Part shown: positions 1 through 49,981 of the stretch, piece after piece
How the letters are laid out: every line of letters begins with the position of its first letter
Position numbering within the stretch: the first letter of the stretch is position 1
NCBI GenBank assembly: GCA_031430855.1
Contig: JANPCG010000013.1
Coordinates: 99,781 to 163,780 of the forward strand
Source of the DNA: Candidatus Kaiserbacteria bacterium
Lineage (GTDB): Bacteria; Patescibacteriota; Minisyncoccia; Phycocordibacterales; UBA918
Length of the DNA: 64,000 nt
Direction: 5' to 3'
Position numbers and translations under genes: made by a program
The notes under the pieces: generated by a model
Database searches by the model: none
Seen by the model: the letters and a program-made list of their open reading frames with translations, nothing else
What the model was told of the DNA's origin: nothing

Positions 1-208
1 AGGATTGTTCTACAACTGAATATAAATGACCTAACCCCTAAAGTCTTGCTTTGGGATATGGTCGAAAATCCTAACGAAAATACTGAACTCCGTGTTCAGC
101 TACTTTTCGTTAGGTCATATCTGGAAACGGGTATGGGGCTTTAGGGCTCGGCTGGCACGGAGTTCAGTGCGTTTACGTGTCAGCCACACTATTTAAATAA
201 TAAATATT

Positions 209-880
209 ATGAGCGATACACAACAAACAACGCTGGGTGCTACAACTAATAGAGAGAAGTTATTTTGGGGTATTGGACTTCTACTAGTAGCGATTGGGGT
301 ACTAGCAACAAGTCTACTTACAACACTTGCTGGAGTAGCTATACTTCCGATTACTGGCAAGCTCTTACAAAGCAAACTGAACGTGAAAAAACCTATCTTG
401 GTCCAATCTCTAGCTCTTGTAGTGATACTGCTTGTGGGAACATTTACTCTTGATTCAACTAAGTCTACAGAAGTGGCGAGCACACCTACTCCAGTCCCTA
501 CAGTATCAATGGTTTTTGACGTACCACTACTTGTTGGAAAAACAGTAAGCGAATTAGAAACAACATTAGGCACGCCAACTAAGTACACGGTCCCTCCAAC
601 TACTAATGTAGACGGTAGTAAAATTGAGACATGGGAGAAAACTTGGGAGAAAAACGAGCATAGTCTTATGGTCACTTATAAACTTGATACGAATGAAGTT
701 GTTGATTTGTTTTTAAGTGCGGATAGCGATAGTGCATTTGCCAACTTTAAGAGCAAGGACAATATCTTGCTCGTTGGTAATTTGTCAGATGACAGTACTG
801 CTTACGAACTTGAGTTTGTAGAAACTGTGAATATGGCAGATAAAGGCTATACAGGAGTTATTGTTAAGGCAAAAAAGTAG
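209..880 (+). CDS. hypothetical membrane protein (N-terminal TM helices, Thr/Val-rich extracellular part)
   Basis: ORF track; hydrophobic N-terminus GIGLLLVAIGVLATSLL; no recognisable catalytic motif. Confidence 0.4.
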   Translation: MSDTQQTTLGATTNREKLFWGIGLLLVAIGVLATSLLTTLAGVAILPITGKLLQSKLNVKKPILVQSLALVVILLVGTFTLDSTKSTEVASTPTPVPTVSMVFDVPLLVGKTVSELETTLGTPTKYTVPPTTNVDGSKIETWEKTWEKNEHSLMVTYKLDTNEVVDLFLSADSDSAFANFKSKDNILLVGNLSDDSTAYELEFVETVNMADKGYTGVIVKAKK

Positions 881-991
881 TAATTTAACCACATTGGTAT
901 CAAATTTGAAGTGCAAAGCAGGGCACCTGGTCTTAAACCTGCTAAATTAAATTAAGCAAAGAAAGTCTATTTTTGCTATTATGTAAGGGAT

Positions 992-3049
992 ATGAACTTA
1001 GTAGGTAAGACAATCAATGGCTACGTATTTATTGAATTTATCAATGAAGGCGGTTTTGGAGCTGTATACAAAGCCGAAAAAGCTGGGGTTATTTATGCGA
1101 TAAAACTTTTTCGTGAAGCCTATGTGCTGAAAGAATTTCGCCGTGATGGACATAATCGACTAGAACGTGAGATAGAAATAATGCAGAAAGTTTCAGGTCC
1201 AAATCTCGTTAGTTACATTGAACATTTTGAGTATCAAGACAATGGCTCAAATTATTATTTTTTAGTGATGGATTTTGTTGATGGTGAAACACTACGTACT
1301 ATACTTGATAGAGATGGTCAGCTAGATGAAGCGACTTCAAAAAATATTATCCTGCAAGTACTTGATGGTCTTGAAGTTTTGCATAACTTAAAAAATGGTA
1401 ATTCGTCTGGAATCATACATCGTGACCTCAAACCTGAAAATATAATTATGGACAGAAGTGGAGTGTTAAAGATTGTTGATTACGGTATTTCAAAAGTGAT
1501 TGATTTTACATCCATAACTAGTACTGGTGATGTGTTGGGTACGGGTCCGTATATGTCTCCAGAACAAATTACAGATAGTAAAAATATTGATAGACGCAGT
1601 GATTTATATACTGTTGGCATCTTGTACTATGAATTACTTACAAATGAATTTCCGTATGATTTTCAGTCTGCATTTGAATTGGCTGAAAAAATAAAGGTTG
1701 AACGGCCAATGCCACCACGGAGAAAAGTGCCAGGTATTTCAAACGCAACTGAAAATATTATTTTAAGCTTGCTCGAAAAGGAAGCTTATAAACGACCAGT
1801 AGATGTATCTACAATCAGAGCCTCTTTGTTAAGTGGTGAACCTGCAACAACGCTTAAAGAATATGATTTAACACCAAAATTTATTCTTCACCTGAATGAT
1901 GATAAAACTGTTTTAACAGAGTATCTACCTACAATAAGTGATAATTTAACAGTAGTTTTTCCGGCGAATCTATCCTCTGCACAGAAGGGTTTATTGAGTC
2001 TTATTCAAGGGCAACAAACCCGAGTTATAGTTGACCCCGCAACAGTTCGTCTTGCTTACGACACGTATGCTGATACAAAAGGATTGGTTGAGTTACCGTA
2101 TTCGAGAAAAGACTTTCAGGCAATTACCCCGGATTACCTTTCAGATTATAAGGTCCAAAAGGCTTATGTTAAAAGTGTGATTGATACGGAACATAAATTG
2201 GGGGCTGATGTTTTGTTGTCTCCATTTCATTACACTCATAACTCAAATGTCTCATTAGCTACGAGAAATATGGCGTCAGAGTGGCTGGACTTAGACATAA
2301 AACTTTTAATGGAAGCAATTGATTATCGTAATTCAAGTCCAGAACTAAAAGGAAAAGAATTGTATGCGGGTATTTGCTTACATCATACATCTATTAATGA
2401 TGAGCGTGACCGTAAATACATACTAAACACATTTTCTCTGTTTGATGTGGATGGTTACATAGTTTACGTTGATTCGATTGACAAAGAATCTTCAAAATCA
2501 ACTCTATACAGTTATATAAAACTTGTTACGGAATTACAGCAAAGCACTGGTAAGCCAGTCATAGCAGGACGTATGGGTCAATTTGGCTTAGGTTTGTTAT
2601 GTGCAGGCATTACTGGTTTTACATCAGGTACTGCTCGCTTCGAATCGTTCTATGAGGGTTTGTATAAAGAAGATACCGGTCCAGCATATAACATGTATGA
2701 AAGATATTATTATCCCGAGTTACTTTCTTGTATCTCAATTAAGAAAAAAGACCCAACGAGATTTGATAGTATTGCAGAATTCCTTCCCCCATGCGACTGT
2801 CCTTACTGTATTGGTAAGTCCGTTACAGAAATTATTCAGGCAAAGAATAATAAGTTTCATTTTCTGTATAAATATAAACAAGAAGTAAACGCTATCCTTG
2901 CACTGCCTGAACAAAAAAGAATACCTTACTTTTTAAGTCGTATCGAAGTTGCTATTGATAATTACGCCAAGATGTCACCAAAAGTGTTTGGACCATCTGA
3001 TTATAAACACCTACAAAACTGGCAGGAGGTGTTTAGTAAGCTACAATAG
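992..3049 (+). CDS. Ser/Thr protein kinase (N-terminal about 270 aa) fused to a roughly 400 aa unknown C-terminal domain with a CDCPYC (CxCxxC) motif
   Basis: Hanks kinase motifs visible: GGFGAVYKA glycine loop, AIK lysine, HRDLKPENI catalytic loop, DYG (DFG variant), SPE (APE variant); C-terminal domain unassigned. Confidence 0.8.
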   Translation: MNLVGKTINGYVFIEFINEGGFGAVYKAEKAGVIYAIKLFREAYVLKEFRRDGHNRLEREIEIMQKVSGPNLVSYIEHFEYQDNGSNYYFLVMDFVDGETLRTILDRDGQLDEATSKNIILQVLDGLEVLHNLKNGNSSGIIHRDLKPENIIMDRSGVLKIVDYGISKVIDFTSITSTGDVLGTGPYMSPEQITDSKNIDRRSDLYTVGILYYELLTNEFPYDFQSAFELAEKIKVERPMPPRRKVPGISNATENIILSLLEKEAYKRPVDVSTIRASLLSGEPATTLKEYDLTPKFILHLNDDKTVLTEYLPTISDNLTVVFPANLSSAQKGLLSLIQGQQTRVIVDPATVRLAYDTYADTKGLVELPYSRKDFQAITPDYLSDYKVQKAYVKSVIDTEHKLGADVLLSPFHYTHNSNVSLATRNMASEWLDLDIKLLMEAIDYRNSSPELKGKELYAGICLHHTSINDERDRKYILNTFSLFDVDGYIVYVDSIDKESSKSTLYSYIKLVTELQQSTGKPVIAGRMGQFGLGLLCAGITGFTSGTARFESFYEGLYKEDTGPAYNMYERYYYPELLSCISIKKKDPTRFDSIAEFLPPCDCPYCIGKSVTEIIQAKNNKFHFLYKYKQEVNAILALPEQKRIPYFLSRIEVAIDNYAKMSPKVFGPSDYKHLQNWQEVFSKLQ

Positions 3050-3057
3050 TAGTAGTT

Positions 3058-3690
3058 ATGTTTTCATTAGAAAAAGATGTTGTTAAAGTGCTTGATGCAA
3101 ATATCAACCACATCTTTGGTGAAGGTCGTTCCGTATTAGAGTTTTCATGTGGTGTTGGCCGTCCCGATATTATGTTTGGAAGGATGGTAAATAACAATGA
3201 CAGGGAATCAATCGCTGATTACGATTCCATGTTAGTCTTATCAACTTTTTGTGTACGAAAAGGTCAATTAGTTACGGCCGATAGAATACGAGAAAGTACA
3301 AATTTTTCTGGTAAAAAAATTGATGAAATAATCAAGCTTCTTTCAGACCATGAATATATAAAGCAAAGTAGTACGAATAAGTACGTTGTCACTAGAAGAT
3401 ATGAACCACCAGTACAAGATTTTATTTCTATTGAAGTGAAAATGAAAGACTGGAGACAGGGTTATTATCAGGCCGTAAGATATTCAAGTTTCTCGACAAA
3501 AAGTTATTTAGCAATATCGTCTGAATATATTAACAATGTTGATATTGAAGTCTTAAGAAAAGACGGTATTGGACTTATTTCCGTAGGTTCTAGTACTGCA
3601 AAGATTCTAGTGTTAGCAAAGAAGATAAAGCACAATAACAAAATTGCACATTATTTATCAACTGAGAGATTTAGAGGTTGTCTGCAGTAA
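3058..3690 (+). CDS. hypothetical protein, PD-(D/E)xK nuclease-like (GRPD ... IEVK motif spacing)
   Basis: GRPDIMFG followed about 90 aa later by SIEVKMKDW resembles the PD...(D/E)xK restriction-endonuclease-fold signature; inference only. Confidence 0.35.
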   Translation: MFSLEKDVVKVLDANINHIFGEGRSVLEFSCGVGRPDIMFGRMVNNNDRESIADYDSMLVLSTFCVRKGQLVTADRIRESTNFSGKKIDEIIKLLSDHEYIKQSSTNKYVVTRRYEPPVQDFISIEVKMKDWRQGYYQAVRYSSFSTKSYLAISSEYINNVDIEVLRKDGIGLISVGSSTAKILVLAKKIKHNNKIAHYLSTERFRGCLQ

Positions 3691-3798
3691 TTTAACTCAA
3701 TAAGGGCTACTGTTATTGCCTAAAACTTCACATGGGCTTGGTAGGGTGACCTAATATTATTTGATGAAAAGATTATCGTTTCAGACTATAATCAAGGC

Positions 3799-4458
3799 GT
3801 GGTAAACGTCTACACTGAATATTTCAAAGAACTCATGGACTTCCTGTATGGGATAGTAATAAGCTTGCCTGATTCGATGGGGGTAACTAACATATCTTAC
3901 TCATTTGATGATTATCGCACTAGTATTGGACAACAGGTCCAGCTTTTGGAATCGCTTGAGAAAGTTGGCGTCCTGAAAATTATTTATAAAGTGCCTTTAC
4001 CGCCAGTCGTAAAATTCACACTTAATACAAGTGGGAATAGGTATTCAGCCTCTGGTTGTCTGGGTTATGAATTGGAGATAAATAAGGATGAATTTTTGCG
4101 ATACAGGGCCAATAGTAGTTTGTTGAGCGTAAATAATGATGAACACCAGTATGAATTGCCACATTTGTCTGATAACGGGCGAATTCTTTTTGTTAATGGT
4201 GATGAAATTATTTTAAGTAAGCACGGGGAGATGACTAAAAGTTATGCGATAGCAAATTTAATTTTTAATAATGACGACTACCAATGTACAAACGAAGCAT
4301 TAGTTGATATGGCTGGAAGTGCTAAAGATAGAAAGAGCCCGAAGTCTTTTGTAGATAATGCCGTGAAGTATTTTAACCGCAAAGTTAATATACCGAATTT
4401 TGTTAGACAATCTGAGGGAATAATTTTATTGAATGAGAAATACACAAATTTTCGGTAA
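3799..4458 (+). CDS. hypothetical protein
   Basis: ORF track, AT-rich island codon usage, no motif recognised. Confidence 0.4.
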   Translation: MVNVYTEYFKELMDFLYGIVISLPDSMGVTNISYSFDDYRTSIGQQVQLLESLEKVGVLKIIYKVPLPPVVKFTLNTSGNRYSASGCLGYELEINKDEFLRYRANSSLLSVNNDEHQYELPHLSDNGRILFVNGDEIILSKHGEMTKSYAIANLIFNNDDYQCTNEALVDMAGSAKDRKSPKSFVDNAVKYFNRKVNIPNFVRQSEGIILLNEKYTNFR

Positions 4459-4507
4459 GATTTAACCATATGTTCAACCTAGTTCGAACATCATAATAAA
4501 TATAGTA

Positions 4508-4531
4508 AACGCACTCGAAAACGAGTGCGTT
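4508..4531. terminator. perfect 10-bp stem hairpin AACGCACTCG-aaaa-CGAGTGCGTT between genes (weak T tract)
   Basis: read directly from sequence; intergenic. Confidence 0.35.
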
Positions 4532-4694
4532 ATGCGTTTAGAAGACAAGCACATTAATCAATTTATTGAGCTGTACTTAAAAAAGTACGGTGTGGTTTTG
4601 GAACGTGCTGAAGCAACGCAAATGGCTATTAGGTTTGCGAGTTGTATTCGTGTGGTCGAATCGAATTCATTTATTAAACAAGAAGAAAATAAGT

Positions 4695-5189
4695 ATGGAC
4701 AATGATGAGGATTCTATTGAGGGTGGCTATGTGATTATGCCACGTAATATAGCCCGTGATAGCCGAAATGGTTTGATGACAAACCCCGAACGGAATTTGT
4801 TGTTATGGATTCGGTTGATAGCTGATGTTCGAGGTGTAAGCCATTGTTCCATGAAAGGACTTGCAGATGAAGCCTTTAACGACAAAGTTTCCAATTCGTA
4901 TATAAATAAAATACTACGTTCATTAAAGAAGAAGAGATACCTTTGGTACCAAGACCGCAATGGTCGCAGAGGTACGTTCGAGATTCATTTACGTGATTGG
5001 TTCTTGAAAGATAAGGTTATTAAGGATATTACAAATTTGTTTGAAAAGGAGTCAGTCAAAGCTCAATCAAAGGCCAGGTGGAATCCTGATGCTAAACCCA
5101 GACCAATTTCTGAGGAAGAGAGTCAGAGGATTGTAGATAGAAGAAAAGCAATTACAGCAAAGCTTTCTATGCATCAAAAGCAACTGTGA
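4695..5189 (+). CDS. hypothetical basic protein (possible DNA-binding or regulatory protein of the mobile element); start moved to the MDNDED methionine
   Basis: ORF 4590..5189; first ATG at 4695; Arg/Lys-rich. Confidence 0.4.
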   Translation: MDNDEDSIEGGYVIMPRNIARDSRNGLMTNPERNLLLWIRLIADVRGVSHCSMKGLADEAFNDKVSNSYINKILRSLKKKRYLWYQDRNGRRGTFEIHLRDWFLKDKVIKDITNLFEKESVKAQSKARWNPDAKPRPISEEESQRIVDRRKAITAKLSMHQKQL

Positions 5190-5273
5190 GTCAGAGCTTG
5201 CTATACAGATACTGAAACAGACACAAAAACTGATACAAAAAACTTACACAGTACTTTAAGAAATTAATCTCAA

Positions 5274-5876
5274 TTGATTTCGGTTATGTCACGAGAACTT
5301 ACAACTTCACGCTTATTATTAGATATTCGAAAGATGTATTTCTTGGAAATGATTCCGAAGAATGGATATAAGACTGGTAGATTTGCATGGTATCAAAACA
5401 ATACTGAATTAGGGTACATAAATTATCAGTCTTCTGTTGGAAGGACATATGCTGGTCTTCAACTGATTTATCAAATTACATACCAAGGGGGTGAGGTTAA
5501 AAACATCAATCAGGAAGTGTTGCTGACGGGTATTGATTGTCATTTTGGGGGTTTCCGTTGGTACTTCAAATGCCCAGGATGTAATGCACGAGTAGCAGTG
5601 CTTTATAGCGGTCAAAATGGCTTCTACTGTAGAAAATGTAACCATCTAGCATACGAAGGTCAAAATGATTCAAAACTGAACAGAGAGGGCATTTTTCGCT
5701 TATGGTCCATTACAGATAAAGAAGAAAAGATGATTGCACGGATAGGGCGTACTTTATACAAAGGTAAGCCTACTAGGAAGTATAAACAGCTTTTGGATAT
5801 ACAAAAAAAGAATGGATTGATAGTGAGAGAAGAAGTACAAAAAGAGTATAATAAAACCAATAATGAAAAATTTTAG
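5274..5876 (+). CDS. hypothetical zinc-ribbon protein (CPGC...CRKC)
   Basis: four Cys in CxxC...CxxC arrangement; overlaps the recombinase start by 14 nt (operon-like). Confidence 0.45.
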   Translation: MISVMSRELTTSRLLLDIRKMYFLEMIPKNGYKTGRFAWYQNNTELGYINYQSSVGRTYAGLQLIYQITYQGGEVKNINQEVLLTGIDCHFGGFRWYFKCPGCNARVAVLYSGQNGFYCRKCNHLAYEGQNDSKLNREGIFRLWSITDKEEKMIARIGRTLYKGKPTRKYKQLLDIQKKNGLIVREEVQKEYNKTNNEKF

Positions 5877-7629
5877 CGACAACAAATACTTCATCTATAT
5901 TCGGAGGTCGCAAGATGCTGAGGACCGTCAAATGGCGAGTCTGGAAGACCAGGAAGCTGAAATGCGAACTGTGGCCGAAAGGTACAATTTAAATGTGGTT
6001 GATGTGATTGGTGAGTCACGGTCCGCCAAACACCCAGGTAGACCTAAGTTTAATGAAATGCTTGCACGCTTGCATGCTGGTGAAGCTAATGGGGTGTTGT
6101 GTTGGAAATTGAATCGACTGTCTCGCAATCCAATAGATGGTGGCCAGATTTCATGGTTGTTACAACAAAAAGTAATTTCTCATATCAGGACCATTGAAAG
6201 AGATTATTTACCAACTGATAACGTCATTATGATGGCGGTTGAACTTGGTATGGCTAATCAGTTTTCAAATGATTTAAGTGTTGATGTTAAGAGAGGTATG
6301 CGACAAAAGGCTGGGCGTGGCTGGAATTCACAAAGCACACTACCTGTTGGTTATAGGCATAACACTGGTTATGAAAAAGACGGTGAAGAGATAGTTTCTA
6401 CTTCTGACCTTCAAATTGTTAAAAAAGTTTTAGGTACTTTTTTAGAAGGTGCACATTCGGTGTCGGATATTCAGCGACTAGGTACTGTCCTTGGGCTTGT
6501 AAACAAGAGGGGTAAACCACATGTCTATAACACGTATCTGAATATGTTGAGATGTCATATGTACTATGGTTACTTCCAGTGGCGAGACAGTGACGGTGTT
6601 GAACAGTGGCATAAGGGAAAACACGAACCAATTATTACTGAAGAACAATTTAATCAAGTTCAGTTAATGCTTGGTAAGCGTGGAAGACCAACAAGAATTA
6701 ATACATACGACTTTGCGTTTCGTGGCCCGCTGTCTTGCGGTGAGTGTGGTTGTGCTGTTACTGCTGAAAGAAAACTACAGTGTATTTGTACTGGGTGTAA
6801 AAGAAAATTTTCGTGCAAAACTGCTAAGGCTTGCCCAGATTGTGCTTTGCAAATAGGTGATATGAAAAAGCCAAGTTTCGTTGATAAAACTTACTATCGT
6901 TGCACTAAGAGAAAGAAGGGATACAAATGTTCTCAAAAATGCATTGAAGAAAGTAAGCTTCATACTGACATTGACGGCATATTGCAAGATATGGAAATAG
7001 ATAAGGACTTCTATCAATGGGCTAAAATGGCCTTACGTGACGTTCATAGTAGTGAAATTGATGAACAGCGTGAAATCGTAAAAAGAACAGCCAAGAAAAG
7101 AGATGAGCTTTTTCAGCGATTGAATAACTTGGTCCTGATGCGTGCTGACGGTGAGATTTCGTCTGACCAACTTAAAGACATGAAAGGTAAAGCGGAAAGG
7201 GAATTACATGAAGTCGAAAAAGAGTATCGAGCACTGGACCAGCGAGCTTTGCACTGGGTAGATATTGCTGATGGCTACCTGACGTTTACTGAGAAAGCTT
7301 GTGACCTATTTAACACAACTACTAATTTGAGTCTCAAGCGTGAGATACTTCAAACCCTTGGTTCGAACCTAGAAATTTTTAATCAAAAGCCAATGTTCGT
7401 AATGGCTAAACCGCTTATTGCATTGAAAAATGTTCATGTGCGTACCTACAAAGAATTAGGTACGTTCGAACCTAAAAAAGCCCTTGATAAACAAGGACTT
7501 TCTAAGGAAAAAGCTATTGCTTTTTCAGTTCTGTGCGCCGGGAGGGATTCGAACCTTCGTAGGCTGATGCCAGCAGATTTACAGTCTGCCCTCGTTGACC
7601 GCTTGAGTACCGACGCAAATATAGTGTAG
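5863..7629 (+). CDS. large serine recombinase (resolvase/invertase catalytic domain + recombinase domain + Cys4 zinc ribbon)
   Basis: N-terminal YIRRSQDAEDRQMASLEDQ (catalytic Ser + Q...L..Q) and LNRLSRN motifs; CGECGC...C..C zinc ribbon; 588 aa, typical of large serine recombinases. Confidence 0.8.
   Translation: MKNFSDNKYFIYIRRSQDAEDRQMASLEDQEAEMRTVAERYNLNVVDVIGESRSAKHPGRPKFNEMLARLHAGEANGVLCWKLNRLSRNPIDGGQISWLLQQKVISHIRTIERDYLPTDNVIMMAVELGMANQFSNDLSVDVKRGMRQKAGRGWNSQSTLPVGYRHNTGYEKDGEEIVSTSDLQIVKKVLGTFLEGAHSVSDIQRLGTVLGLVNKRGKPHVYNTYLNMLRCHMYYGYFQWRDSDGVEQWHKGKHEPIITEEQFNQVQLMLGKRGRPTRINTYDFAFRGPLSCGECGCAVTAERKLQCICTGCKRKFSCKTAKACPDCALQIGDMKKPSFVDKTYYRCTKRKKGYKCSQKCIEESKLHTDIDGILQDMEIDKDFYQWAKMALRDVHSSEIDEQREIVKRTAKKRDELFQRLNNLVLMRADGEISSDQLKDMKGKAERELHEVEKEYRALDQRALHWVDIADGYLTFTEKACDLFNTTTNLSLKREILQTLGSNLEIFNQKPMFVMAKPLIALKNVHVRTYKELGTFEPKKALDKQGLSKEKAIAFSVLCAGRDSNLRRLMPADLQSALVDRLSTDANIV
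7534..7616 (-). tRNA. tRNA-Tyr (anticodon GTA) with long variable arm, no encoded CCA
   Basis: manual fold: acceptor GCGTCGG/CCGGCGC, anticodon loop CTGTAAA, variable stem GGC/GCC, T-loop GGTTCGAATCC; lies inside the 3' end of the recombinase ORF on the opposite strand. Confidence 0.8.
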
Positions 7630-7710: not shown

Positions 7711-8874
7711 ATGATGCGTCTGTTTGTCTTTTTTTGTCTCGTGGGTGTTTTTGCTATCGCACCTCTCATGGTCGATGCGCGTGGCCTCGTGCCGTGTGGT
7801 GGGCCGGGAGAACCTGCCTGTCAATCATGTCATGTGGTTGCGCTCACTAATAATATTATTGGGTGGCTCGTATTGATCCTTGGGACTATTGCGGCAATTG
7901 TTATTGTTTACGCGGGAGTAAAGCTGGTAACCTCAGCGGGTAATCAGGGAGCCATGGAGGATGCCAAGAGTTTGATTACTAATATCATAATCGGGTACGT
8001 GATTGTGTTGGCGGGGTGGCTCATTATTGACTACGTGATGAAGGTGCTCGTTGATGAGGGGAGTTTTGGTGTCTGGAATCAGCTTGAATGTACCACGCAG
8101 GTGGTGCCAGGAGCGGCGGATATTAATACTATCGATTTTAGTTTGCCGTATGCGCCGCTTGATGCTGACTTGGGTAGTCTCCAAGGGTGGGTGCCGTCTG
8201 GTACGACAGCGACCGGTGGTCCGGGTGGAACAACGGCTCCGGGTTCGTATAGTTCGGCGTGTCGCCTCTTGCCTAATCCTCCGGGAGTCAGGGAATACGA
8301 TTGTAGTGCGCAGCAGACACAATGCAGAAGCGCCGGAGGGACGCCGTCACTCAATACTGATGGTTCTACGGTCATGTGTGCACCGGCGCAGATTACTGGT
8401 GGAGGAGGCGGCTCGTGTACGGTCGTTACTAATCCATCAAATGCGTGCCATCCAAGCCGATTGACGTGTTTTCCTGATCGAAACCTTGCGTCTGAAATTT
8501 GTAATCTTGAGAGTGGCGGAGGAGATACTACAAGAATGTCTGGTTCTGATTTGTGTCGGGATGGTCGGTCATTTTCAGTTGGGCTATGGCAAATAAATAT
8601 TTTAGCCAACCGAGCACTTATTCCTGGCTGCACGGGAACCTTCTTTACTTCAGACAATAATGGTCGGAGTGAAGGTAGTTGTATCCAGTATCGGACTAAC
8701 AGTCGTGGTGTTCGGTATTGTCAGTATCGATCGTGTGAGATCACTAATGTGGCTACATATAACCGTTGTGTCTCAAATGCGCGAATTCCTGCAAACAATA
8801 CTACGGCTGCCTGTAGTCTCATGCGTTCTCAGGGATGGAATGCCTGGGCTACATCGTATAATTTATGTCGATAA
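7711..8874 (+). CDS. secreted protein: TrbC/VirB2-pilin-like N-terminal domain fused to a Cys-rich lysozyme or lytic-transglycosylase-like C-terminal domain
   Basis: signal peptide; CGGPGEPACQSC; two hydrophobic helices (IIGWLVLILGTIAAIVIVYAGVKLV, IIGYVIVLAGWLIIDYVM) as in TrbC/VirB2; C-terminus has ES...GLWQIN...TYN resembling GH23 (E-S, GLMQ, AYN) motifs. Confidence 0.55.
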   Translation: MMRLFVFFCLVGVFAIAPLMVDARGLVPCGGPGEPACQSCHVVALTNNIIGWLVLILGTIAAIVIVYAGVKLVTSAGNQGAMEDAKSLITNIIIGYVIVLAGWLIIDYVMKVLVDEGSFGVWNQLECTTQVVPGAADINTIDFSLPYAPLDADLGSLQGWVPSGTTATGGPGGTTAPGSYSSACRLLPNPPGVREYDCSAQQTQCRSAGGTPSLNTDGSTVMCAPAQITGGGGGSCTVVTNPSNACHPSRLTCFPDRNLASEICNLESGGGDTTRMSGSDLCRDGRSFSVGLWQINILANRALIPGCTGTFFTSDNNGRSEGSCIQYRTNSRGVRYCQYRSCEITNVATYNRCVSNARIPANNTTAACSLMRSQGWNAWATSYNLCR

Positions 8875-8877
8875 TAT

Positions 8878-9402
8878 ATGTTTTTTAAAATACTATTTAT
8901 GTTGTTTGCAGCGGGGAGTGTCGTTTTTGGTGTCTGGTACGTCATGATATATAGTCCGCTGCAAGTTGTTGATACTACGCCGAGTGGTCAAACAGGGATA
9001 GATTTCCCGACTCTGAATACAAATGAAATACCGGAAATTGTTATCAATCATTCACCAAACACTATCGCCACCAGTAAAGATGTTTCCATTTCAGACACAC
9101 CACTTATTCTTCATCGAGATGTAAAAGAGATTGCGCCAGATTTTTATCAAATGAGCGGAGATACTGGTCAATATGAAGTAAGTTATAGTCGACCAAGTGG
9201 TAGTGTAACGATTACTCTTTATGGAGAAGATACGAAAAAATCCCGTGCGAATGCTGAAGCCTACATACTCAAAACGTTGCCGTATACGGAAGATGAGTGG
9301 TGTGGGTTTGTGGTGACGGTAATAACGAATCAGTTTGAAAACCCGACCTGGGCCGGGCAAAATCTAGGTCTGAGTTTCTGTCCGGGTTCGATAGCTCTCT
9401 AA
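8878..9402 (+). CDS. membrane-anchored hypothetical protein (candidate immunity or partner protein)
   Basis: single N-terminal TM helix then soluble domain; sits between the two TrbC-like hydrolase genes. Confidence 0.45.
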   Translation: MFFKILFMLFAAGSVVFGVWYVMIYSPLQVVDTTPSGQTGIDFPTLNTNEIPEIVINHSPNTIATSKDVSISDTPLILHRDVKEIAPDFYQMSGDTGQYEVSYSRPSGSVTITLYGEDTKKSRANAEAYILKTLPYTEDEWCGFVVTVITNQFENPTWAGQNLGLSFCPGSIAL

Positions 9403-10371
9403 ATGAAAAAAATTCTCGTCATTGCTTTGCCACTTTTCGTTCTCGGGCTCTTTTTTGTTCCAGAAATTAATACCCTAGAAGCACAGGGTATTGCACAGTT
9501 AGCACAATGTTCGGGTAATGATTGTACCTCGTGTAATTTAGTTCACCTTGGTAATGGACTTATTCAATGGTTGATCGGAATTCTCTTTATAATCTTTGCC
9601 ATTTTGACGGTCGTTGCAGGGGTGCGTTTAGTAATTTCAGGCGGCAGTACTCAGGCGCTCGATAGCGCCAAAGAATTGTTTAAAAATGCCTTCATTGGAT
9701 TTGTGATTGTCCTCGCGTCCTGGCTTATTGTTGATACCATTATGCGCGTACTGCTCGGTAATGGTGGAAGGTTGGGTTCGTCAGGTGAAGTGTCGGGTTG
9801 GTTATTTTGGTCAGAGGTTGAGTGTCAGACGGTGCGTGATGCAACGCGAGCGGAAATTCGAACGGTTGAATTCGATTTACCAGAAGCCTTAATTGATCAA
9901 GGTGGTGGTACGGCTGGGCAGATTACAATCTCAACACCTTCGGGACCGCAAGTTGTTAACGTTTCCCCTTGTGATACATCAACTTTAACTACCATTAACT
10001 TTTTGGGTGGTAGTGTGACGCTCAATCGGCAGTTTGCAGCAAGTGCGGCCCGGATTGACGCAGCTTGGAGAGCCCGAGGAGGAAATAGTTTCTATCGAGT
10101 GACATCAATTGGTGGTTATGCATGCCGAAATGTGGCCGGTACAAATAGACGGTCCAATCATGCGTATGGTTTGGCGATTGATATTAATCCAGCGCAAAAT
10201 CCACACACCTTTCCTGGTGATTCTAATTACGGACAAACGAATATGCCACCCGCCTTTCGTCAGATCTTTTTGAATGAAGGGTGGGGCTGGGGAGGGAACT
10301 GGAACTCTTCAAAAGACACGATGCACTTTAGTAAAGCGACGGGAGAGGGTGGTAATATGAGAGGAAATTAA
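9403..10371 (+). CDS. secreted protein: TrbC/VirB2-like N-terminal domain fused to LAS/M15-family metallopeptidase (D-Ala-D-Ala carboxypeptidase or endolysin-type) domain
   Basis: N-domain about 60 percent identical to the two paralogs (CSGNDCTSCNLVHL..., GVRLVISGG...IGFVIVLASWLIVDTIMR); C-domain SNHAYGLAIDINP ... DTMHFS matches the SxHxxGxAxD...H zinc-peptidase signature. Confidence 0.65.
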   Translation: MKKILVIALPLFVLGLFFVPEINTLEAQGIAQLAQCSGNDCTSCNLVHLGNGLIQWLIGILFIIFAILTVVAGVRLVISGGSTQALDSAKELFKNAFIGFVIVLASWLIVDTIMRVLLGNGGRLGSSGEVSGWLFWSEVECQTVRDATRAEIRTVEFDLPEALIDQGGGTAGQITISTPSGPQVVNVSPCDTSTLTTINFLGGSVTLNRQFAASAARIDAAWRARGGNSFYRVTSIGGYACRNVAGTNRRSNHAYGLAIDINPAQNPHTFPGDSNYGQTNMPPAFRQIFLNEGWGWGGNWNSSKDTMHFSKATGEGGNMRGN

Positions 10372-10373
10372 GT

Positions 10374-10973
10374 ATGAAACCACGAATCATTCTCGGTATG
10401 CTGGTGTTGTTACTCACACTAATTGTTTGCGTTTGGTATTTTACTAAAGGTACTTCTGATGAAGTTCCGGGTAGGGTGACTGACTTTTCAGCCATTGGTG
10501 TACCAACGACTGCTGAAGATACTTCGTTTACAAGCTTATTGAAACAACAGCCTGATGAAACACAACAGAAGGTGCTCGATAATATATATCTAGACGAATA
10601 TTATCTCTATCCGTGTAATATAACTAATCCACCAACTGATGTGGTAGTTTTGGTCGCTCAGTATAAACCAAATAGTGCTGGCTTAAATACCTTTCAAACG
10701 GCACAATCTGCCGTAAAGACTTTTGAAGATGACATATACCCTAATTGGGGACATCTGATTTTTAAAGATTCCTTTAATGCAGCACTGTCCGTGCGGAATT
10801 TTAGTGAAAAAGGAGTGAGTGATCCTGAGCTTGTGACCGAGACCTATCGGGTTGGATTATCGCCTGATGGGCAAACGCAGGTGTATTATGGGTGGGTACT
10901 CAATTATATTGTCGTAGCGTCTTCGAAAGACTGTTTAATTGAAACTATGAAACAAGTTTATTCCATTCATTAG
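10374..10973 (+). CDS. membrane-anchored hypothetical protein (candidate immunity or partner protein)
   Basis: N-terminal TM helix ILGMLVLLLTLIVCVWYF, soluble remainder; follows the M15 fusion gene with a 2 nt gap. Confidence 0.45.
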   Translation: MKPRIILGMLVLLLTLIVCVWYFTKGTSDEVPGRVTDFSAIGVPTTAEDTSFTSLLKQQPDETQQKVLDNIYLDEYYLYPCNITNPPTDVVVLVAQYKPNSAGLNTFQTAQSAVKTFEDDIYPNWGHLIFKDSFNAALSVRNFSEKGVSDPELVTETYRVGLSPDGQTQVYYGWVLNYIVVASSKDCLIETMKQVYSIH

Positions 10974-10993
10974 CGCTCGATAATTGTACCCAT

Positions 10994-12106
10994 ATGAAAT
11001 ACCTCCCCATCATTTTATTTATCACATTTTCATTCGGCTTTATGTTTGTGCCTGAGACTGGTGTCGCACAAGCCCCGGGTTTGGTGCAGCTCGCACAGTG
11101 TACCGGTAATGATTGTACGGCGTGTAATTTAGTTCATTTAGCGAACGGTATCATTCGGTGGGTGATTGGTATTCTCTTTGTGATATTTGCGGTCTTGGTG
11201 GCGATTGCGGGAGTGCGATTGGTGATTTCGGGGGGTAATAGCCGGGCTTTGGATGAAGCCAAAGAAACGTTTATCAATGCCATTATTGGATTTATCATTG
11301 TTCTCTCTGCGTGGCTTATCATTGATACCGTGATGCGTACCTTGGTCGGCAATGAGGGACGTTTGGGATCGACTGGTTCGGTGTCTGGGTGGCTATTTTG
11401 GTCGGAGGTTGAGTGTCAGACGGTGAGAAATGCTACTGCGGCTGAAATCAGAACTATTCAGTTTGAACTCGCTACAGCTGAGTTTTGGCCTGGTGATCCG
11501 GGTGGAGCGTTTGGAACATCAGAGGTGGTATCAGTTACATCGTGTGCCGCTACTCCGGCTGGTAACATAAATTGTACAGCGCTCGAGAGTGCGTGTCGTG
11601 CTGCTGGCAACTCGCCAATAGTCGACAGAACTAATCCAGTCGACTATCGCGTTAATTGTGTCAGTGTTTCCGATACTCCAGCAGCTCCAGTAAGCGGCTC
11701 TGGTTCGACCGGATGTACCGGAGGGGCGTGTGTGCCGCTGACGATACCGTGTAGTGCATCTGGTTGTACGATTGCGAGAGATATGGTGTCGCGGTTAGCT
11801 GGTATGCATTCTGCGGCTGGGGTTTCTGGTGCGCGAGTGACCGAAGCGATGCCGCCGAGTCGACAACATAGAAGTGCCTGTCACCAAAATGGAACCTGTA
11901 TCGATTATAGTAAAGCGGGTGGTATGAGTGGTGGAGAGGTAGCCCGTGTGATTTCCGCAGCGTCGCGTAACGGATTACGAGCGGTATACGAAGTGCAAAC
12001 ACAGACGCAAAAAAATGCTTTGGTAGCTGCTGGTGCCCCCGCTGGAAATATCACTGTGCTTGGTAATTGGATTAGTGCCCCACACTTTTCAATTTACGGG
12101 AGTTAG
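10994..12106 (+). CDS. secreted protein: TrbC/VirB2-like N-terminal domain fused to a Cys-rich, divergent M15-like peptidase domain
   Basis: N-domain nearly identical in pattern to 9403..10371; C-terminal RSACHQNGTCID ... SAPHFS mirrors the H..G...D ... HF pattern of the neighbouring M15 domain. Confidence 0.5.
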   Translation: MKYLPIILFITFSFGFMFVPETGVAQAPGLVQLAQCTGNDCTACNLVHLANGIIRWVIGILFVIFAVLVAIAGVRLVISGGNSRALDEAKETFINAIIGFIIVLSAWLIIDTVMRTLVGNEGRLGSTGSVSGWLFWSEVECQTVRNATAAEIRTIQFELATAEFWPGDPGGAFGTSEVVSVTSCAATPAGNINCTALESACRAAGNSPIVDRTNPVDYRVNCVSVSDTPAAPVSGSGSTGCTGGACVPLTIPCSASGCTIARDMVSRLAGMHSAAGVSGARVTEAMPPSRQHRSACHQNGTCIDYSKAGGMSGGEVARVISAASRNGLRAVYEVQTQTQKNALVAAGAPAGNITVLGNWISAPHFSIYGS

Positions 12107-12127
12107 TTTTTAAGGGGAGAGAATGTT

Positions 12128-12510
12128 ACGAGGAATCTTGAAACTTACAGTTTCGGTACAGGTTGTCGCTACTTTTAAAGTCCCGCAAGCGGTCACAAGT
12201 GACGAAGGGTTCTGCTGTCACAAGTTACTAACTATAATCATTCGCTACGCTCTGATTCTAGTAAGTACTTTCGACCCACGAGGAATCTTGAAACATACAG
12301 TTTCGGTACAGGTTGTAATGTAAGCCTTTGTGCGGTCACAAATCACTAACTATATTTGTTCACTTCGTTCCAAATCTAGTAAGTGTTCGCGACCCCGGCT
12401 CATGGCTCGCAAGCTTGCAACATTCCGCCTCCCGCAGCAGTCGCAAGCAAAGCAGTTTATCTTTGCGGTCACAGATAATTTTCTTCGAAAATTTCTGCGA
12501 CCCCGACGCA
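12128..12510. repeat. degenerate tandem repeats (units about 150, 115, 110 bp) with recurring blocks GGAATCTTGAAAC(T/A)TACAGTTTCGGTACAGGTTGT, GCGGTCACA and CTAGTAAGT...TTCG(A/C)GACC
   Basis: 38-bp block identical bar 1 nt at 12130 and 12280; GCGGTCACA occurs four times; ORFs called here are likely spurious. Confidence 0.6.
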
Positions 12511-12576
12511 CTCGTGGCAAAGCCACATCGTTTACGTCTCCCGCCCGAGCCGAACCTGACGCAGGTCAGGTTCTAA

Positions 12577-12610
12577 AGAAAAATCACAATGCGGATGCAT
12601 TGTGATTTTT
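12577..12610. terminator. bidirectional rho-independent terminator, perfect 15-bp stem GAAAAATCACAATGC-ggat-GCATTGTGATTTTTC
   Basis: perfect palindrome with A/T runs on both sides, immediately 3' of tRNA-Trp (minus strand). Confidence 0.7.
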
Positions 12611-12620
12611 CTTTGCTCGG

Positions 12621-12691
12621 GCGGGCCCACGAGGACTTGAACCTCGGTCAACGGTTTTGGAAACCGGTATTCTACCACTGAACTATAGGCC
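12621..12691 (-). tRNA. tRNA-Trp (anticodon CCA)
   Basis: manual fold: acceptor GGGCCTA/TGGGCCC, anticodon loop TTCCAAA, T-arm CGAGG-TTCAAGT-CCTCG; C27-U43 mismatch noted. Confidence 0.75.
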
Positions 12692-12775
12692 CGTTTATTT
12701 GTGGTGGCATAATGCCAGTGGGATAATAGTAGGCGAAATGATGGATTCGGTCAATGGACAATTTTCTCGGCGTGG

Positions 12776-33026: not shown

Positions 33027-33668
33027 ATGAAAACTATTTACCTTGTCCGTCATGGAGAAACGCACGCAAATATTAAACGTGTGTGGCAGGATGCTACTGA
33101 TGAATTATCACCAAAAGGCTTGCAGCAGGCCGAAGATGTAGCACAGCGCCTCAGTACATTGAAAATAGATTTTGCGCTCACGAGCTCAATGAAACGAGCA
33201 GTACAAACAGCAGATGTGATAGGCAAAAAAACAGGAATTTCATTTTTAGAATCTCCATTTTTTGTTGAAGTGTCGGTTCCAACCAGTACTGTTGGAACGA
33301 CATATGAAGAAGTGGAAGGCAATGCAGGTTTTGAGTATGTCGCTACACGTGACTTACATGCCGATGACCCAGACTATCGCTATGAGGATGAGGAAACTCT
33401 TAATGAACTAATTGAACGCATAAAAGCTGGTTTGGCATATTTAGATTCGCTTCCAGCTCAAAATATTCTCGTGGTAACGCACGGTACAATTCTGCGTAGT
33501 CTTATCAGCTTAGTGATGCATCAAGAGTTGCTAGTTACACCGTATACTATTTTTACTGCCGGCCGGAGACTCGAAACCATGAACACCAGTATTTCAGTAT
33601 TACACAAAAAACCTGATGCCTTATGGAGTGTTATCACCTTTAATGATTACGCGCATTTTGCGGAATAA
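33027..33668 (+). CDS. histidine phosphatase (phosphoglycerate mutase family), paralog 1
   Basis: YLVRHGETHAN RHG catalytic motif. Confidence 0.75.
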   Translation: MKTIYLVRHGETHANIKRVWQDATDELSPKGLQQAEDVAQRLSTLKIDFALTSSMKRAVQTADVIGKKTGISFLESPFFVEVSVPTSTVGTTYEEVEGNAGFEYVATRDLHADDPDYRYEDEETLNELIERIKAGLAYLDSLPAQNILVVTHGTILRSLISLVMHQELLVTPYTIFTAGRRLETMNTSISVLHKKPDALWSVITFNDYAHFAE

Positions 33669-33671
33669 TTT

Positions 33672-34301
33672 ATGAAAAAAATCTATCTCGCTCGACACGG
33701 CGAATCAACGTCAAATGTGTCCCATGTGGTACAAGGCTCAGAAGATATTTTGACGGCCGTGGGTGAAAAACAGGCGGATGTATTAGCTGAACGTCTCTCA
33801 AAACTATCATTTCAAAATCTCCTGGTGAGTGATTATGTTCGAACGAAACAAACCGTTGCGCCATTACTACAAAAAGTTTCTATAGAGCCAATGTATTCTC
33901 CGTTACTGCGCGAAGCGCGTCGTCCGAGTAGCCTCGTAGGTTCTCCAATTAGTGGTGAAGGCTTTGCTAGCTTTGACGAATTATCGAAAGTTCATGTGTT
34001 AGAGGCTGATTGGCATTTTGAAGACGAAGAAAATTTCCATGACATAGTGGCGCGGATTACAAACCTATTTGCTCTTATTAGTACCCTTGAGGGTGACACA
34101 GTTCTTGTCTCGCACGGTAGATTAGCTATCTATATTGTGATGTACGTCATCATGGGAGGTAATCTGACGCCCGCAGTCTGGCAGACTGATTTCGCTACCT
34201 TTACGACCACCAATACCGGTATCACCGTTTTTTCTTACAAAGAAACCGAAAAGTTGTGGGCTCTTACGACGTATAACGATCACGCGCACTTCGCGGAATA
34301 A
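33672..34301 (+). CDS. histidine phosphatase family, paralog 2
   Basis: YLARHGESTSN motif. Confidence 0.75.
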   Translation: MKKIYLARHGESTSNVSHVVQGSEDILTAVGEKQADVLAERLSKLSFQNLLVSDYVRTKQTVAPLLQKVSIEPMYSPLLREARRPSSLVGSPISGEGFASFDELSKVHVLEADWHFEDEENFHDIVARITNLFALISTLEGDTVLVSHGRLAIYIVMYVIMGGNLTPAVWQTDFATFTTTNTGITVFSYKETEKLWALTTYNDHAHFAE

Positions 34302-34304
34302 TCT

Positions 34305-34934
34305 ATGGAAGTCTACCTCGTACGACACGGACAAACTGATGGTAATTTAGGGCGTCGTCATCAGCACACCTCAACCAAATTAAATGAAACGGGAAAGGCT
34401 CAGGCTGCAGCGGTGTCAGAAATCATTAGGGAAATTAAACCCACGCATCTGATAACAAGTACAAATGTACGAGCGATTGAAACAGCGCGCCGGATTTCAG
34501 AAGTTACCGATTTAATTCCTGAAACCTATCCCGCCTTTGAGGAACTGCATCAATCTAAATCAATGGTCGGGGAACGTCTGGCGGGGCTCCGTGCTATCAA
34601 CTATATGGCGCTTTGGTTCTTAGGTAGTAGAACAGCATCCATGCACGACGGTGAGACATACGCAGCGTTTGTGAGTCGTCTTGCTCGTGCTCGAACCCAC
34701 CTCGAAGAATTACCGTCCGATGCTCGGGTGGTGATTGTCTCACATTCAGTGTTTATTAATTTCTTTATCGAACATATGATTCGTCCGAAGCGAATGGGGC
34801 TGACTCGCGCCACGCTGTGTCTCTTCCGCATTTTGACTCTTAAAAACAGTAGTATTACCCATACTCGCTTTAAGATGCCGGAGGATGGTAGTCACAAAAC
34901 CGGTTGGCACCTCGTACACGGTAAGGTGAAGTAG
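34305..34934 (+). CDS. histidine phosphatase family, paralog 3
   Basis: YLVRHGQTDGN motif. Confidence 0.7.
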   Translation: MEVYLVRHGQTDGNLGRRHQHTSTKLNETGKAQAAAVSEIIREIKPTHLITSTNVRAIETARRISEVTDLIPETYPAFEELHQSKSMVGERLAGLRAINYMALWFLGSRTASMHDGETYAAFVSRLARARTHLEELPSDARVVIVSHSVFINFFIEHMIRPKRMGLTRATLCLFRILTLKNSSITHTRFKMPEDGSHKTGWHLVHGKVK

Positions 34935-35124: not shown

Positions 35125-35195
35125 TGCCGATTCGTCTAATGGTAGGACTCTGGTTTCTGGTACCAGCTATTGGGGTTCGAGTCCCTGATCGGCAG
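35125..35195 (+). tRNA. tRNA-Gln (anticodon CTG), U1-A72 pair
   Basis: manual fold: acceptor TGCCGAT/ATCGGCA, anticodon arm CTGGT-TTCTGGT-ACCAG, T-loop TTCGAGT; immediately precedes the GC drop. Confidence 0.75.
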
Positions 35196-35269
35196 CTTCT
35201 TATTTTAACTATATTTTCAATAAAATTGGTTCGAGTCAAAGATGCAAATTGGTCTGGTATACTTTTTGT

Positions 35270-36193
35270 ATGATAGATACTGATTTTCAAGAAAGATTAA
35301 TCGCACATTTAGAAAGAGAGTCCAATTTAATAATTGTATCAACTCAACTTTCTCCTCAAGGAATGTCTAGTTCTGTTTTCTTTATTAAAACAGCACAAGG
35401 TAAAGAATATGCAGTAAAATATGGTGTTGACGCTATGAAAGATATCCCTGCTCTTAATTTGCTTTCGAGGGAACAGGTTAGCATCTCTGTACCGTCAGTG
35501 CTTTGCTCGTTTCGTTTTGAAGAGACATCTGTAATCGTATTGGAAAAAATACAGTTTCCACTATTGGAAACGGTTGCTATGGAAGAAACACCAAAATACA
35601 TTCCTTCAATAATAAAAAATTTGAGAAAGCTACACAGAATAAAATCTATATCTCCAGGATTACTTAACGAACCAGACAGTCAGATGACATGGAAGGAAAT
35701 AATACTTGATATTTTTGAGGGTAATGCATTTAATTGGCAAGAGATTTCGCAGAGGGAAGTAATAAATACTGATTTGATAACAGTATCAGTAGAGAAAGTG
35801 ATCAAGAAAATAAATGACACTGAATTTCCGGTTGGAGAATATTCACTTTTACATACGGACTTTAATCAAAGAAATCTATTTGTGAATCAAGAGAATTATG
35901 AGATAGCAGGAATAATTGATTGGGAAGATGCGATGTATGGAGATCCAATTTATGACTTTGCAAGAGTGCGTATGTATTTATGGCACTTTAATATTGGGAA
36001 TCAGGCAATCAAAAAATACTACGAACTAATGGACTTCACCCCTCATCAAAAAGAGCTTGAGGATTTATACTGGCTTACTCGTGTAATTCAATATATCGGT
36101 TGGTATTCAGAAGAATTAAATGAATTTACTAGAGGGAGGATTAACCTTCATCAAGATTATCTACAATCATACGATTGGTCAAAAAAGTTCTAA
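35270..36193 (+). CDS. aminoglycoside/choline-kinase-like phosphotransferase (APH family)
   Basis: HTDFNQRNLF (HxDxxxxN catalytic loop) and IIDWEDAMYGDPIYDFA (IDWE...D) motifs. Confidence 0.7.
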   Translation: MIDTDFQERLIAHLERESNLIIVSTQLSPQGMSSSVFFIKTAQGKEYAVKYGVDAMKDIPALNLLSREQVSISVPSVLCSFRFEETSVIVLEKIQFPLLETVAMEETPKYIPSIIKNLRKLHRIKSISPGLLNEPDSQMTWKEIILDIFEGNAFNWQEISQREVINTDLITVSVEKVIKKINDTEFPVGEYSLLHTDFNQRNLFVNQENYEIAGIIDWEDAMYGDPIYDFARVRMYLWHFNIGNQAIKKYYELMDFTPHQKELEDLYWLTRVIQYIGWYSEELNEFTRGRINLHQDYLQSYDWSKKF

Positions 36194-38049: not shown

Positions 38050-38054
38050 AGACT

Positions 38055-41182: not shown

Positions 41183-41185
41183 GGT

Positions 41186-42097: not shown

Positions 42098-42123
42098 TTA
42101 GAGTATTAATTATACAACAAACT

Positions 42124-44353: not shown

Positions 44354-44382
44354 GAGCGGTCAGTAATTAATAAAACTACAAC

Positions 44383-47825: not shown

Positions 47826-47881
47826 AGCTTTTAGATAGTAGCATATATTTTGGTAATACAGTGATATAATAGAGATTAATT

Positions 47882-49975: not shown

Positions 49976-49981
49976 TTATCT

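Follow-up and report, generated by a model that had tools for sequence, protein, structure and literature searches.

Arrays of VirB2-like pilins of the type IV secretion system (T4SS) with interleaved non-pilin genes, as well as T4SS-linked peptidase and lysozyme genes, are known in the Patescibacteria (PMC12102498, PMC10633639). In Southlakia epibionticum, for example, six pilins of the Pfam family PF18895 (SEML1_0014-0019) are unfused and essential, with 0017-0019 being 127-139 amino acids (aa) in length. In the same species, VirB4 adjoins a 1113-aa protein with a C-terminal Hedgehog/DD-peptidase domain (SEML1_0007) and is next to a lysozyme-like/cysteine-protease protein, and both of these neighbors are essential as well (PMC10633639). 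Proteins with a T4SS-pilin domain are among the most highly expressed extracellular proteins of Paceibacteria that parasitize methanogens (PMC10936435), and approximately 40% of the Patescibacterial PF18895-type pilin genes are reported in the literature not to be near virB4. In this study, a stretch of 64,000 nucleotides from a Candidatus Kaiserbacteria bacterium (contig JANPCG010000013.1) was analyzed, and this whole 64-kb stretch is referred to as the window. A five-gene operon at positions 7711-12106 was found to encode three proteins that each join an N-terminal hairpin of the same pilin family to a predicted peptidoglycan hydrolase. An earlier reading of this DNA from its letters alone (the sequence-only reading) had called the combination not a textbook system, which was overstated in view of the pilin arrays with interleaved genes and the T4SS-linked hydrolases described in the studies cited at the outset.

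The kinds of components involved, i.e., Patescibacterial VirB2-like pilin arrays, T4SS-associated murein hydrolases, and M15 and SLT domains, are known. New relative to the literature searched are the systematic fusion of pilin and hydrolase and the tRNA-flanked chromosomal slot with exchangeable peptidase cartridges, together with a LAS family that Pfam does not recognize, a Cys-rich mini-domain, and two orphan families of partner proteins. No description of the fusion was found in that literature, which is not proof that it has never been described. The text of PMC12102498 and those of its supplements that were searched contained no mention of Peptidase_M15, PF13539, PF18896, SLT, or the fusion.

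Operon organization and the shared hairpin module

The five open reading frames (ORFs) are all encoded on the + strand and were named in map order as P1 (7711-8874), S1 (8878-9402), P3 (9403-10371), S2 (10374-10973), and P5 (10994-12106), which is also how the sequence-only reading had delimited them. Because the intergenic gaps are only 3, 0, 2, and 20 nt, these genes form one tightly coupled operon. P1 (387 aa) consists of a signal peptide (aa 1-23), a T4SS_pilin-type hairpin (aa 39-114), a low-confidence linker, a Cys-rich mini-domain (aa 176-228), and a lysozyme-like domain of the GH23 clan (aa 246-387) with an invariant E267-S268. P3 (322 aa) includes a signal peptide, a hairpin of the same type (aa 46-120), a linker, and a Peptidase_M15_4 domain (aa 186-322). 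P5 (370 aa) includes a signal peptide, the T4SS_pilin-type hairpin (aa 43-118), a Cys-rich mini-domain (aa 172-228), and a domain of the LAS or Hedgehog/DD-peptidase fold (aa 245-369) for which there is no Pfam model. The interleaved S1 (174 aa) and S2 (199 aa) each have one N-terminal anchor followed by a predicted extracytoplasmic domain, and each belongs to an orphan family.

An N-terminal module of approximately 120-145 aa was common to P1, P3, and P5, with pairwise identities of 74% between P3 and P5 and 50% for both P1-P3 and P1-P5. When the window was searched with a hidden Markov model (HMM) of the module, named pilN, these three proteins were the sole matches (E = 1e-60 to 1e-64, well outside the range of chance), which bears out the conserved N-terminal module that had been proposed for the three genes. 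Each module contained a hydrophobic signal-like segment, a Cys-bearing stretch, and two hydrophobic helices of approximately 35 residues. As previously proposed, the signal peptide and both helices were recovered in all three proteins by a Kyte-Doolittle scan, and the helices also appeared in the AlphaFold models of P1 (39-74 and 79-114) and P5 (43-78 and 83-118), where the hairpin was predicted with confidence. The arrangement of Cys residues was found to be C-x(4-7)-C-x2-C rather than the proposed CxxCxxC, with a fourth conserved Cys after helix 2. A GRLGS(S/T)G-type motif was present in P3 and P5 and missing in P1, so that the motif G(R/N)LGS(S/T)G, which had been assigned to all three proteins, applies to two of them.

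The likeness to TrbC/VirB2 pilins suggested by the sequence-only reading was upheld for one Pfam family and not for the other. The T4SS_pilin family PF18895 was matched by P1, P3, and P5 with 35.4, 36.9, and 39.5 bits, respectively, all above its gathering score of 26.6, and it also matched 56 of the 56 aligned relatives of P1. In contrast, the canonical TrbC/VirB2 model PF04956 was not matched, as its best score was 10.8 bits (P5, E = 0.62) versus a gathering score of 27.9, and among the 56 relatives of P1 one reached E = 0.002. Searches of the N-modules against NCBIfam returned only sub-threshold matches, to pilin-like conjugal-transfer proteins of monoderm elements. By these profile matches, the N-module is assigned to the Patescibacterial T4SS pilin family PF18895 as a predicted homologue of the VirB2-like pilins. 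With lengths of 322-387 aa and C-terminal hydrolase domains, P1, P3, and P5 are not small stand-alone pilins, which are approximately 100-140 aa.

Across the families, the mean pairwise identity was 53-62% for the hairpin and 40-66% for the catalytic domains, versus 25-29% for the signal peptides and 24-32% for the linkers. The hairpin was about twice as conserved as the signal peptides and linkers of the same proteins, and it equaled the catalytic domains. Since its conservation matches that of the catalytic domains, the hairpin would appear to do more than hold the enzyme in the membrane. Hairpins of the VirB2/TraA type have both of their ends outside the membrane, and because of this topology the C-terminal enzymes would, by analogy, be extracytoplasmic. 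The three to four conserved Cys on the outer segments of the module are consistent with such a placement. The linkers between hairpin and enzyme comprise 25-60 residues and showed low values of the predicted local distance difference test (pLDDT) at positions 122-133 of P5 and 133-172 of P1.

C-terminal enzyme domains

The C-terminal domain of P3 was identified as Peptidase_M15_4 (PF13539) with 69 bits versus a cut-off of 25, and it also matched endolysin families of PHROGs. Its H253-x6-D260 and D305-x2-H308 motifs, with H253, D260, and H308 as the zinc ligands, were invariant in 39 relatives. The C-terminal domain of P1 has a lysozyme fold with the catalytic Glu of the E-S motif at the end of the first helix. 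P1 itself remained below the gathering score of SLT_3 (10.7 bits versus 27), and among its 56 aligned relatives SLT_3 matched 19 and SLT matched six (E <= 0.01). The C-terminal domain of P5 adopts the Hedgehog/DD-peptidase (LAS) fold with an H-x6-D ... H triad, and no match to its residues 245-370 was found in Pfam, NCBIfam, or PHROGs, or through a PDB profile search. The assignments made from the sequence alone, namely lysozyme-like for P1, M15 for P3, and divergent LAS for P5, were therefore retained. All three C-terminal domains are predicted to have peptidoglycan-hydrolase folds and as a set would act on the glycan as well as the peptide of murein, in agreement with the earlier proposal.

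Between the linker and the enzyme of P1 and P5 lies a Cys-rich mini-domain of approximately 55 residues, encoded at positions 8236-8394 and 11507-11677, respectively, which has four Cys and a beta-beta-alpha-beta-beta topology in the models. It was also present in the P1 and P5 orthologues of L010, L011, L085, L087, and L088, where L-numbers denote related loci that were retrieved by similarity to the operon proteins, a selection that biases all counts of co-occurrence given here. The mini-domain had no Pfam match and no known relatives, and it may be a wall-binding or spacer module.

The tRNA-flanked slot and its modular content

The operon is located in a chromosomal slot bounded on the left by tRNA-Tyr (GTA; 7533-7616, - strand; identified by ARAGORN and Rfam) and on the right by tRNA-Trp (CCA; 12619-12693, - strand), which is followed by miaA. 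Downstream of the slot, the window included miaA, parB, relA/spoT, topA, dprA, and serS. The same tRNA-Tyr/tRNA-Trp/miaA slot was found to hold such a cassette in seven further loci from other assemblies (eight Paceibacteria-type loci). The tRNA-Tyr precedes the cassette in L001, L002, and L085-L090, and the arrangement on the tRNA-Trp side was the same in L001 and L085-L090, with L002 ending before the tRNA-Trp position. The sequence-only reading had allowed that the genes might be ordinary parts of a complete T4SS operon; they were instead found in a conserved tRNA-Tyr/tRNA-Trp slot of their own.

The content of the cassettes, as determined from our own HMM annotation together with Pfam tables, was modular. 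The window encodes pilin-lysozyme-like, S1, pilin-M15_4, S2, and pilin-LAS5 in this order, and four-gene cassettes comprised pilin-SLT_3, S1, pilin-M15_4, and S2 in L085; pilin-lysozyme-like, S1, pilin-NlpC/P60, and S2 in L087; and pilin-SLT, pilin-M15_4, S2, and pilin-M15_3 in L086. Two-gene cassettes were composed of pilin-SLT and pilin-LAS5 in L088 and L090, and of pilin-SLT and pilin-VanY in L089, where unfused short pilins were also found near the slot. The glycosidase was always first, followed by at least one peptidase (M15_4, NlpC/P60, VanY, M15_3, or the new LAS domain). This pairing of glycosidase and peptidase was observed in 11 of the 11 loci that include the first gene of the slot, and three short contigs hold only its peptidase-S2 part.

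Fusions of this kind were also numerous among metagenomic proteins, of which hundreds join PF18895 to Peptidase_M15_4, VanY, Peptidase_M15_3, SLT, SLT_3, or NlpC/P60. Some sources automatically annotate them as 'D-alanyl-D-alanine carboxypeptidase/Type IV secretion system pilin'. The named relatives included Kaiserbacteria, Nomurabacteria, Paceibacteria, and Parcubacteria.

Small membrane proteins S1 and S2

The interleaved genes had been described as encoding single-transmembrane (TM) proteins, and a hydropathy scan agreed, with one N-terminal hydrophobic segment in S1 (aa 1-26), one in S2 (aa 1-28), and no other in either. The outer domain of S1 has a conserved C-terminal motif, GLSFCPGS, and two conserved Cys, and that of S2 has two invariant Cys (C81 and C187). 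The two proteins appeared to be unrelated, as hhalign aligned only their TM segments. S1 had no match in Pfam, NCBIfam, PHROGs, or PDB, and no consistent match was found for S2 among Pfam, NCBIfam, PHROGs, and PDB profiles, including searches with a 42-member S2 alignment. Through an exhaustive HMMER search of 1.84 billion representative proteins, the S2 family was found in 44 clusters, all of them stand-alone proteins of 106-232 aa.

The occurrence of both families varied among the loci. S1 was located after the pilin-glycosidase gene in nine genomes (among the related loci, in L005, L008, L010, L011, L018, L022, L085, and L087) and after a 192-aa pilin-only gene in L016, and it was absent from L086. 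S2 was located after pilin-M15_4 in eight genomes and after pilin-NlpC/P60 in L019 and L087, i.e., it was retained when the peptidase fold was swapped. In L088-L090, a glycosidase-peptidase pair occurred with neither S1 nor S2 within 10 kb, and the third hydrolase had no partner gene in any genome. By this test of the partner genes, S1 and S2 were neither obligatory nor co-varying with the enzyme fold. Since a cognate immunity protein would have to accompany its toxin in every genome and vary with the toxin fold, S1 and S2 are unlike such proteins, and the effector-immunity arrangement suggested by the sequence-only reading was not supported. Their distribution fits putative accessory proteins whose presence depends on gene position or on the N-module. 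With an N-terminal TM segment and an outer domain, they might conceivably be VirB8-like.

Links to type IV secretion in other genomes

Hairpin-M15_4 fusions were also found next to T4SS genes in other genomes. In L014, a Paceibacteria contig of 155 kb, a gene of 217 aa separates PrgI from the VirB4-like ATPase that comes next, and a gene of 327 aa then precedes a 310-aa hairpin-M15_4 protein that scored 35.7 bits for T4SS_pilin and 65.3 bits for Peptidase_M15_4 and adjoins yidC, dnaA, and dnaN. Similarly, hairpin-M15_4 proteins were encoded directly downstream of VirB4 in L012, L013, L015, and L023, and large proteins with a C-terminal M15_4 were encoded downstream of VirB4 in four Clostridia loci (L031, L045, L051, and L068). 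SEML1_0007 of S. epibionticum is probably the equivalent of the hairpin-M15 hydrolases downstream of VirB4 in Candidate Phyla Radiation (CPR) T4SS clusters.

Two further observations were made on these proteins. In L012-L015, L021, and L023, the PF18895-like hairpin is located mid-protein (461-906 aa), directly before the C-terminal M15_4. The nearest non-CPR relatives of the M15_4 domain were mostly from Actinomycetota, in addition to the VirB4-linked proteins of Clostridia.

Interpretation of the operon

With a probability of about one half, the operon is interpreted as encoding hairpin-targeted murein hydrolases of T4SS type, where the hairpin would direct the enzymes to the site at which the T4SS handles its pilins and the enzymes would open the peptidoglycan in a VirB1-like manner. 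This interpretation draws on the domain identities, the segment order, the conserved hairpin, the modular cassettes of the conserved slot, and the hairpin-M15_4 genes downstream of VirB4 elsewhere. The enzymes would be extracytoplasmic murein hydrolases, with one lysozyme-like protein cleaving the glycan and two acting as LAS-type zinc peptidases. Each would be exported by its signal peptide and tied through a poorly conserved, flexible linker to the conserved two-helix membrane hairpin. Rather than being a passive anchor, the hairpin would have a targeting role and guide the enzymes to the assembly site of the T4SS or pilus. There they could open peptidoglycan locally, in the cell's own wall, at the contact between epibiont and host, or in both. 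Although split among separate proteins, the enzymes would jointly perform the job of the bifunctional VirB1-like hydrolases in Gram-positive conjugation systems. S1 and S2 may then be lineage-specific accessory partners of the first and the second enzyme, such as regulators, chaperones, or adaptors, rather than obligatory immunity proteins.

Several observations weigh against this T4SS-targeted role. A pilus or an enzymatic activity has been demonstrated for no family member, and homology and Pfam scans found no VirB4, PrgI, or other T4SS gene among the ORFs of the window. The N-domains of the T4SS-cluster fusions were far more divergent from the module of the window (pilN E of approximately 1e-8 to 1e-13) than those of the slot cassettes (approximately 1e-55 to 1e-64). 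Where P3 has D305, three residues ahead of its final His, P5 has no acidic residue, which leaves it with no recognizable catalytic base. Additionally, housekeeping genes (ClpB, MiaA, ParB, RelA/SpoT, TopA, and DprA) flank the slot in every genome examined, a setting that would also suit autolysins. Housekeeping autolysins, which would remodel or split the cell's own wall in growth and division and have the hairpin as a mere tether without any T4SS link, are considered a somewhat unlikely explanation. The core-genome position between tRNA-Tyr and tRNA-Trp, near miaA, parB, relA/spoT, topA, and dprA in eight loci, and the lack of T4SS genes within the window would both be expected of them, and cell separation also needs a pair of glycosidase and peptidase. 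However, a hairpin that is twice as conserved as the signal peptide and equal to the catalytic domains would not normally be expected of a passive anchor, T4SS clusters contain genes for the same hairpin-M15_4 fusion, and the hairpin family is otherwise that of the T4SS pilins, whose array is an essential one in S. epibionticum (PMC10633639).

The strong conservation of the hairpin and its loop would also suit an enzyme-armed pilus, in which the hairpins are pulled out of the membrane and polymerize, alone or as minor subunits among unfused pilins, and hydrolases at the surface or the tip digest the wall of the host. In VirB2/TraA pilins, the C-terminus is on the outside of the filament, as seen in the structures of the F and T pili, and a display of enzymes at this end would be compatible with the flexible linkers of 25-60 residues. 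The peptidase type differs between genomes (M15_4, NlpC/P60, VanY, M15_3, or the new LAS), as expected for a foreign wall as the target, and unfused short pilins occur near the slot in L089. Such a filament is nevertheless regarded as quite unlikely, because no T4SS pilus has been seen in Patescibacteria, for which reviews speak only of a 'potential' one (PMC12857230), and because an appendage of 200-250 aa on each subunit would probably hinder packing; the data fit a filament and residency in the membrane alike. An equally low probability is attached to its possible function, which would be to drill through the wall of a host or neighbor, with the slot peptidase exchanged to match the host peptidoglycan and with S1 and S2 as loading or latency factors. 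Polymorphic antibacterial toxins, by which hydrolases would be delivered to competitors and the producer protected by S1 and S2, would account for the conserved N-module with its varying C-terminal enzyme domains, for the difference between genomes in the peptidase domain at position 2 or 3, and for the small exported proteins whose translationally coupled genes directly follow those of two of the three enzymes. They are judged highly improbable, however, as S2 is kept while the upstream peptidase changes from M15_4 to NlpC/P60 (L019 and L087), L088, L089, and L090 encode pilin-SLT with pilin-LAS or pilin-VanY and neither partner within 10 kb, L086 lacks S1, and the third enzyme is partnerless in every genome. 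Moreover, the locus is a vertically conserved core slot and not a mobile or hypervariable island, and the adjacent island ends exactly at tRNA-Tyr.

A T4SS-targeted hydrolase operon would be relevant to how Patescibacterial epibionts breach cell walls in order to attach to their hosts and feed on them, and it bears on the role of the essential, relaxase-less T4SS of the Patescibacteria and its pilin arrays. The fusion of two domains in one protein is strong genomic evidence for the cooperation of their functions, and it provides here a concrete and testable link between a 'pilin' family and the degradation of peptidoglycan. The operon also supplies enzyme domains for biochemistry, including a LAS-fold family without a Pfam model and a small Cys-rich domain, and the peptidase content of the modular locus could be compared with host range.

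Flanking regions and other features of the window

To the left of the slot, positions 1-7532 of the window were found to be a low-GC (36-37%) island inserted at the 3' end of tRNA-Tyr. The island encodes a Ser/Thr kinase fusion of 685 aa (992-3049), a large serine recombinase (5863-7629), and several ORFs that had no Pfam match. The terminal ~32 codons of the recombinase gene overlap tRNA-Tyr, which is encoded on the opposite strand. Rfam also identified a full-length LOOT RNA (RF03000; 28-149, + strand) at the leftmost end of the island, with 81.8 bits versus a gathering score of 46.4. The operon was considered as possible cargo of this serine-recombinase island and rejected as such, because the 99.6%-identical strain of L001 does not contain the island and its similarity begins exactly at position 7533, i.e., at tRNA-Tyr. 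A phage lysis cassette of holin and endolysin was rejected as well, as no phage genes were found and the operon occupies a conserved slot of the core genome.

The operon is separated from tRNA-Trp by a non-coding stretch of 510 nt (12107-12618), in which direct repeats were located, one pair of 68 nt (at 12210 and 12328; 75% identity) and one of 39 nt (at 12128 and 12278; 97% identity). A repeat search also identified a perfect, terminator-like inverted repeat of 18 bp at 12575-12614. Parts of this stretch are also conserved after the cassettes of L005, L006, L022, and L052 and give rise there to spurious ORF similarity. The ORFs at 12123-12323 and 12328-12605 were considered as additional short pilins and rejected, as they showed no pilin signal and fall within the repeat-rich non-coding stretch, for which no match was found in Rfam. 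The stretch may represent a regulatory region or an RNA that has not been described before.

Elsewhere in the window, three tandem paralogous genes (33027-34934; 213, 209, and 209 aa) share an N-terminal 'RHG(E/Q)T' motif, read from their translations, that is typical of histidine phosphatases. A second low-GC block (32-38% versus 45-55% around it) spans approximately 35200-53000, starting right after tRNA-Gln (35125-35196), and may be another island or a compositionally distinct region. Genes resembling ProRS, D-Ala-D-Ala ligase, and MurF were recognized in this block by eye in the translations, and confirmation by Pfam was limited to an ATP-grasp enzyme and a PhyH dioxygenase; the block also includes sizeable ORFs without a Pfam match, such as 38055-39185, 39920-41182, and an ORF of 697 aa (47882-49975). 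An ORF at 53640-54665 (+ strand) encodes a domain of the reverse-transcriptase type that includes a YVDD motif (RVT_1, 50 bits).

Comparison with known systems

The closest described relatives of the N-terminal module are the VirB2-like pilin arrays, which belong to the same family (PF18895) and the same phylum (Quinonero-Coronel et al., 2025, PMC12102498; Wang et al., 2023, PMC10633639). The pilins of those arrays are short, unfused, and usually encoded near virB4, whereas each paralogue of the operon carries an additional 140-250 aa of linker and hydrolase and is encoded in a tRNA-flanked core slot, with no VirB4 in the window. On the enzyme side, the operon differs from phage M15 endolysins, such as the PHROGs families and LysB4, by having no phage context and by having a pilin hairpin instead of a wall-binding domain or a holin partner.

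Effector-immunity pairs of peptidoglycan hydrolases are known from the type VI secretion system as Tae/Tai and Tge/Tgi. The operon is similar to them in that genes of the murein amidase/peptidase or muramidase type are followed by small exported proteins. In contrast to such pairs, several genomes do without the partners found in the operon, no co-variation of these partners with the enzyme fold was seen, and the third enzyme has none.

The hairpin-M15 hydrolases of the CPR T4SS clusters (L012-L015 and L023) share with the operon the order of a hairpin followed by a C-terminal M15_4 or DD-peptidase domain. They are single genes, and their products are often long because of an extended N-terminus (461-906 aa, or 1113 aa for SEML1_0007). 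The VirB1-like hydrolases, including PrgK of pCF10, TraG of pIP501, and TcpG (PMC12102498), are membrane-anchored and extracytoplasmic, as is predicted for the enzymes of the operon, and they combine a lysozyme or SLT glycosidase with a peptidase so that together these open the wall for the T4SS. In those proteins, both activities reside on one polypeptide with a plain TM anchor, the gene is located inside the T4SS operon, and the peptidase is usually CHAP/NlpC or M23. The operon described here, in contrast, is not part of a T4SS operon and distributes the predicted activities among two to three genes that all encode a pilin-type hairpin.

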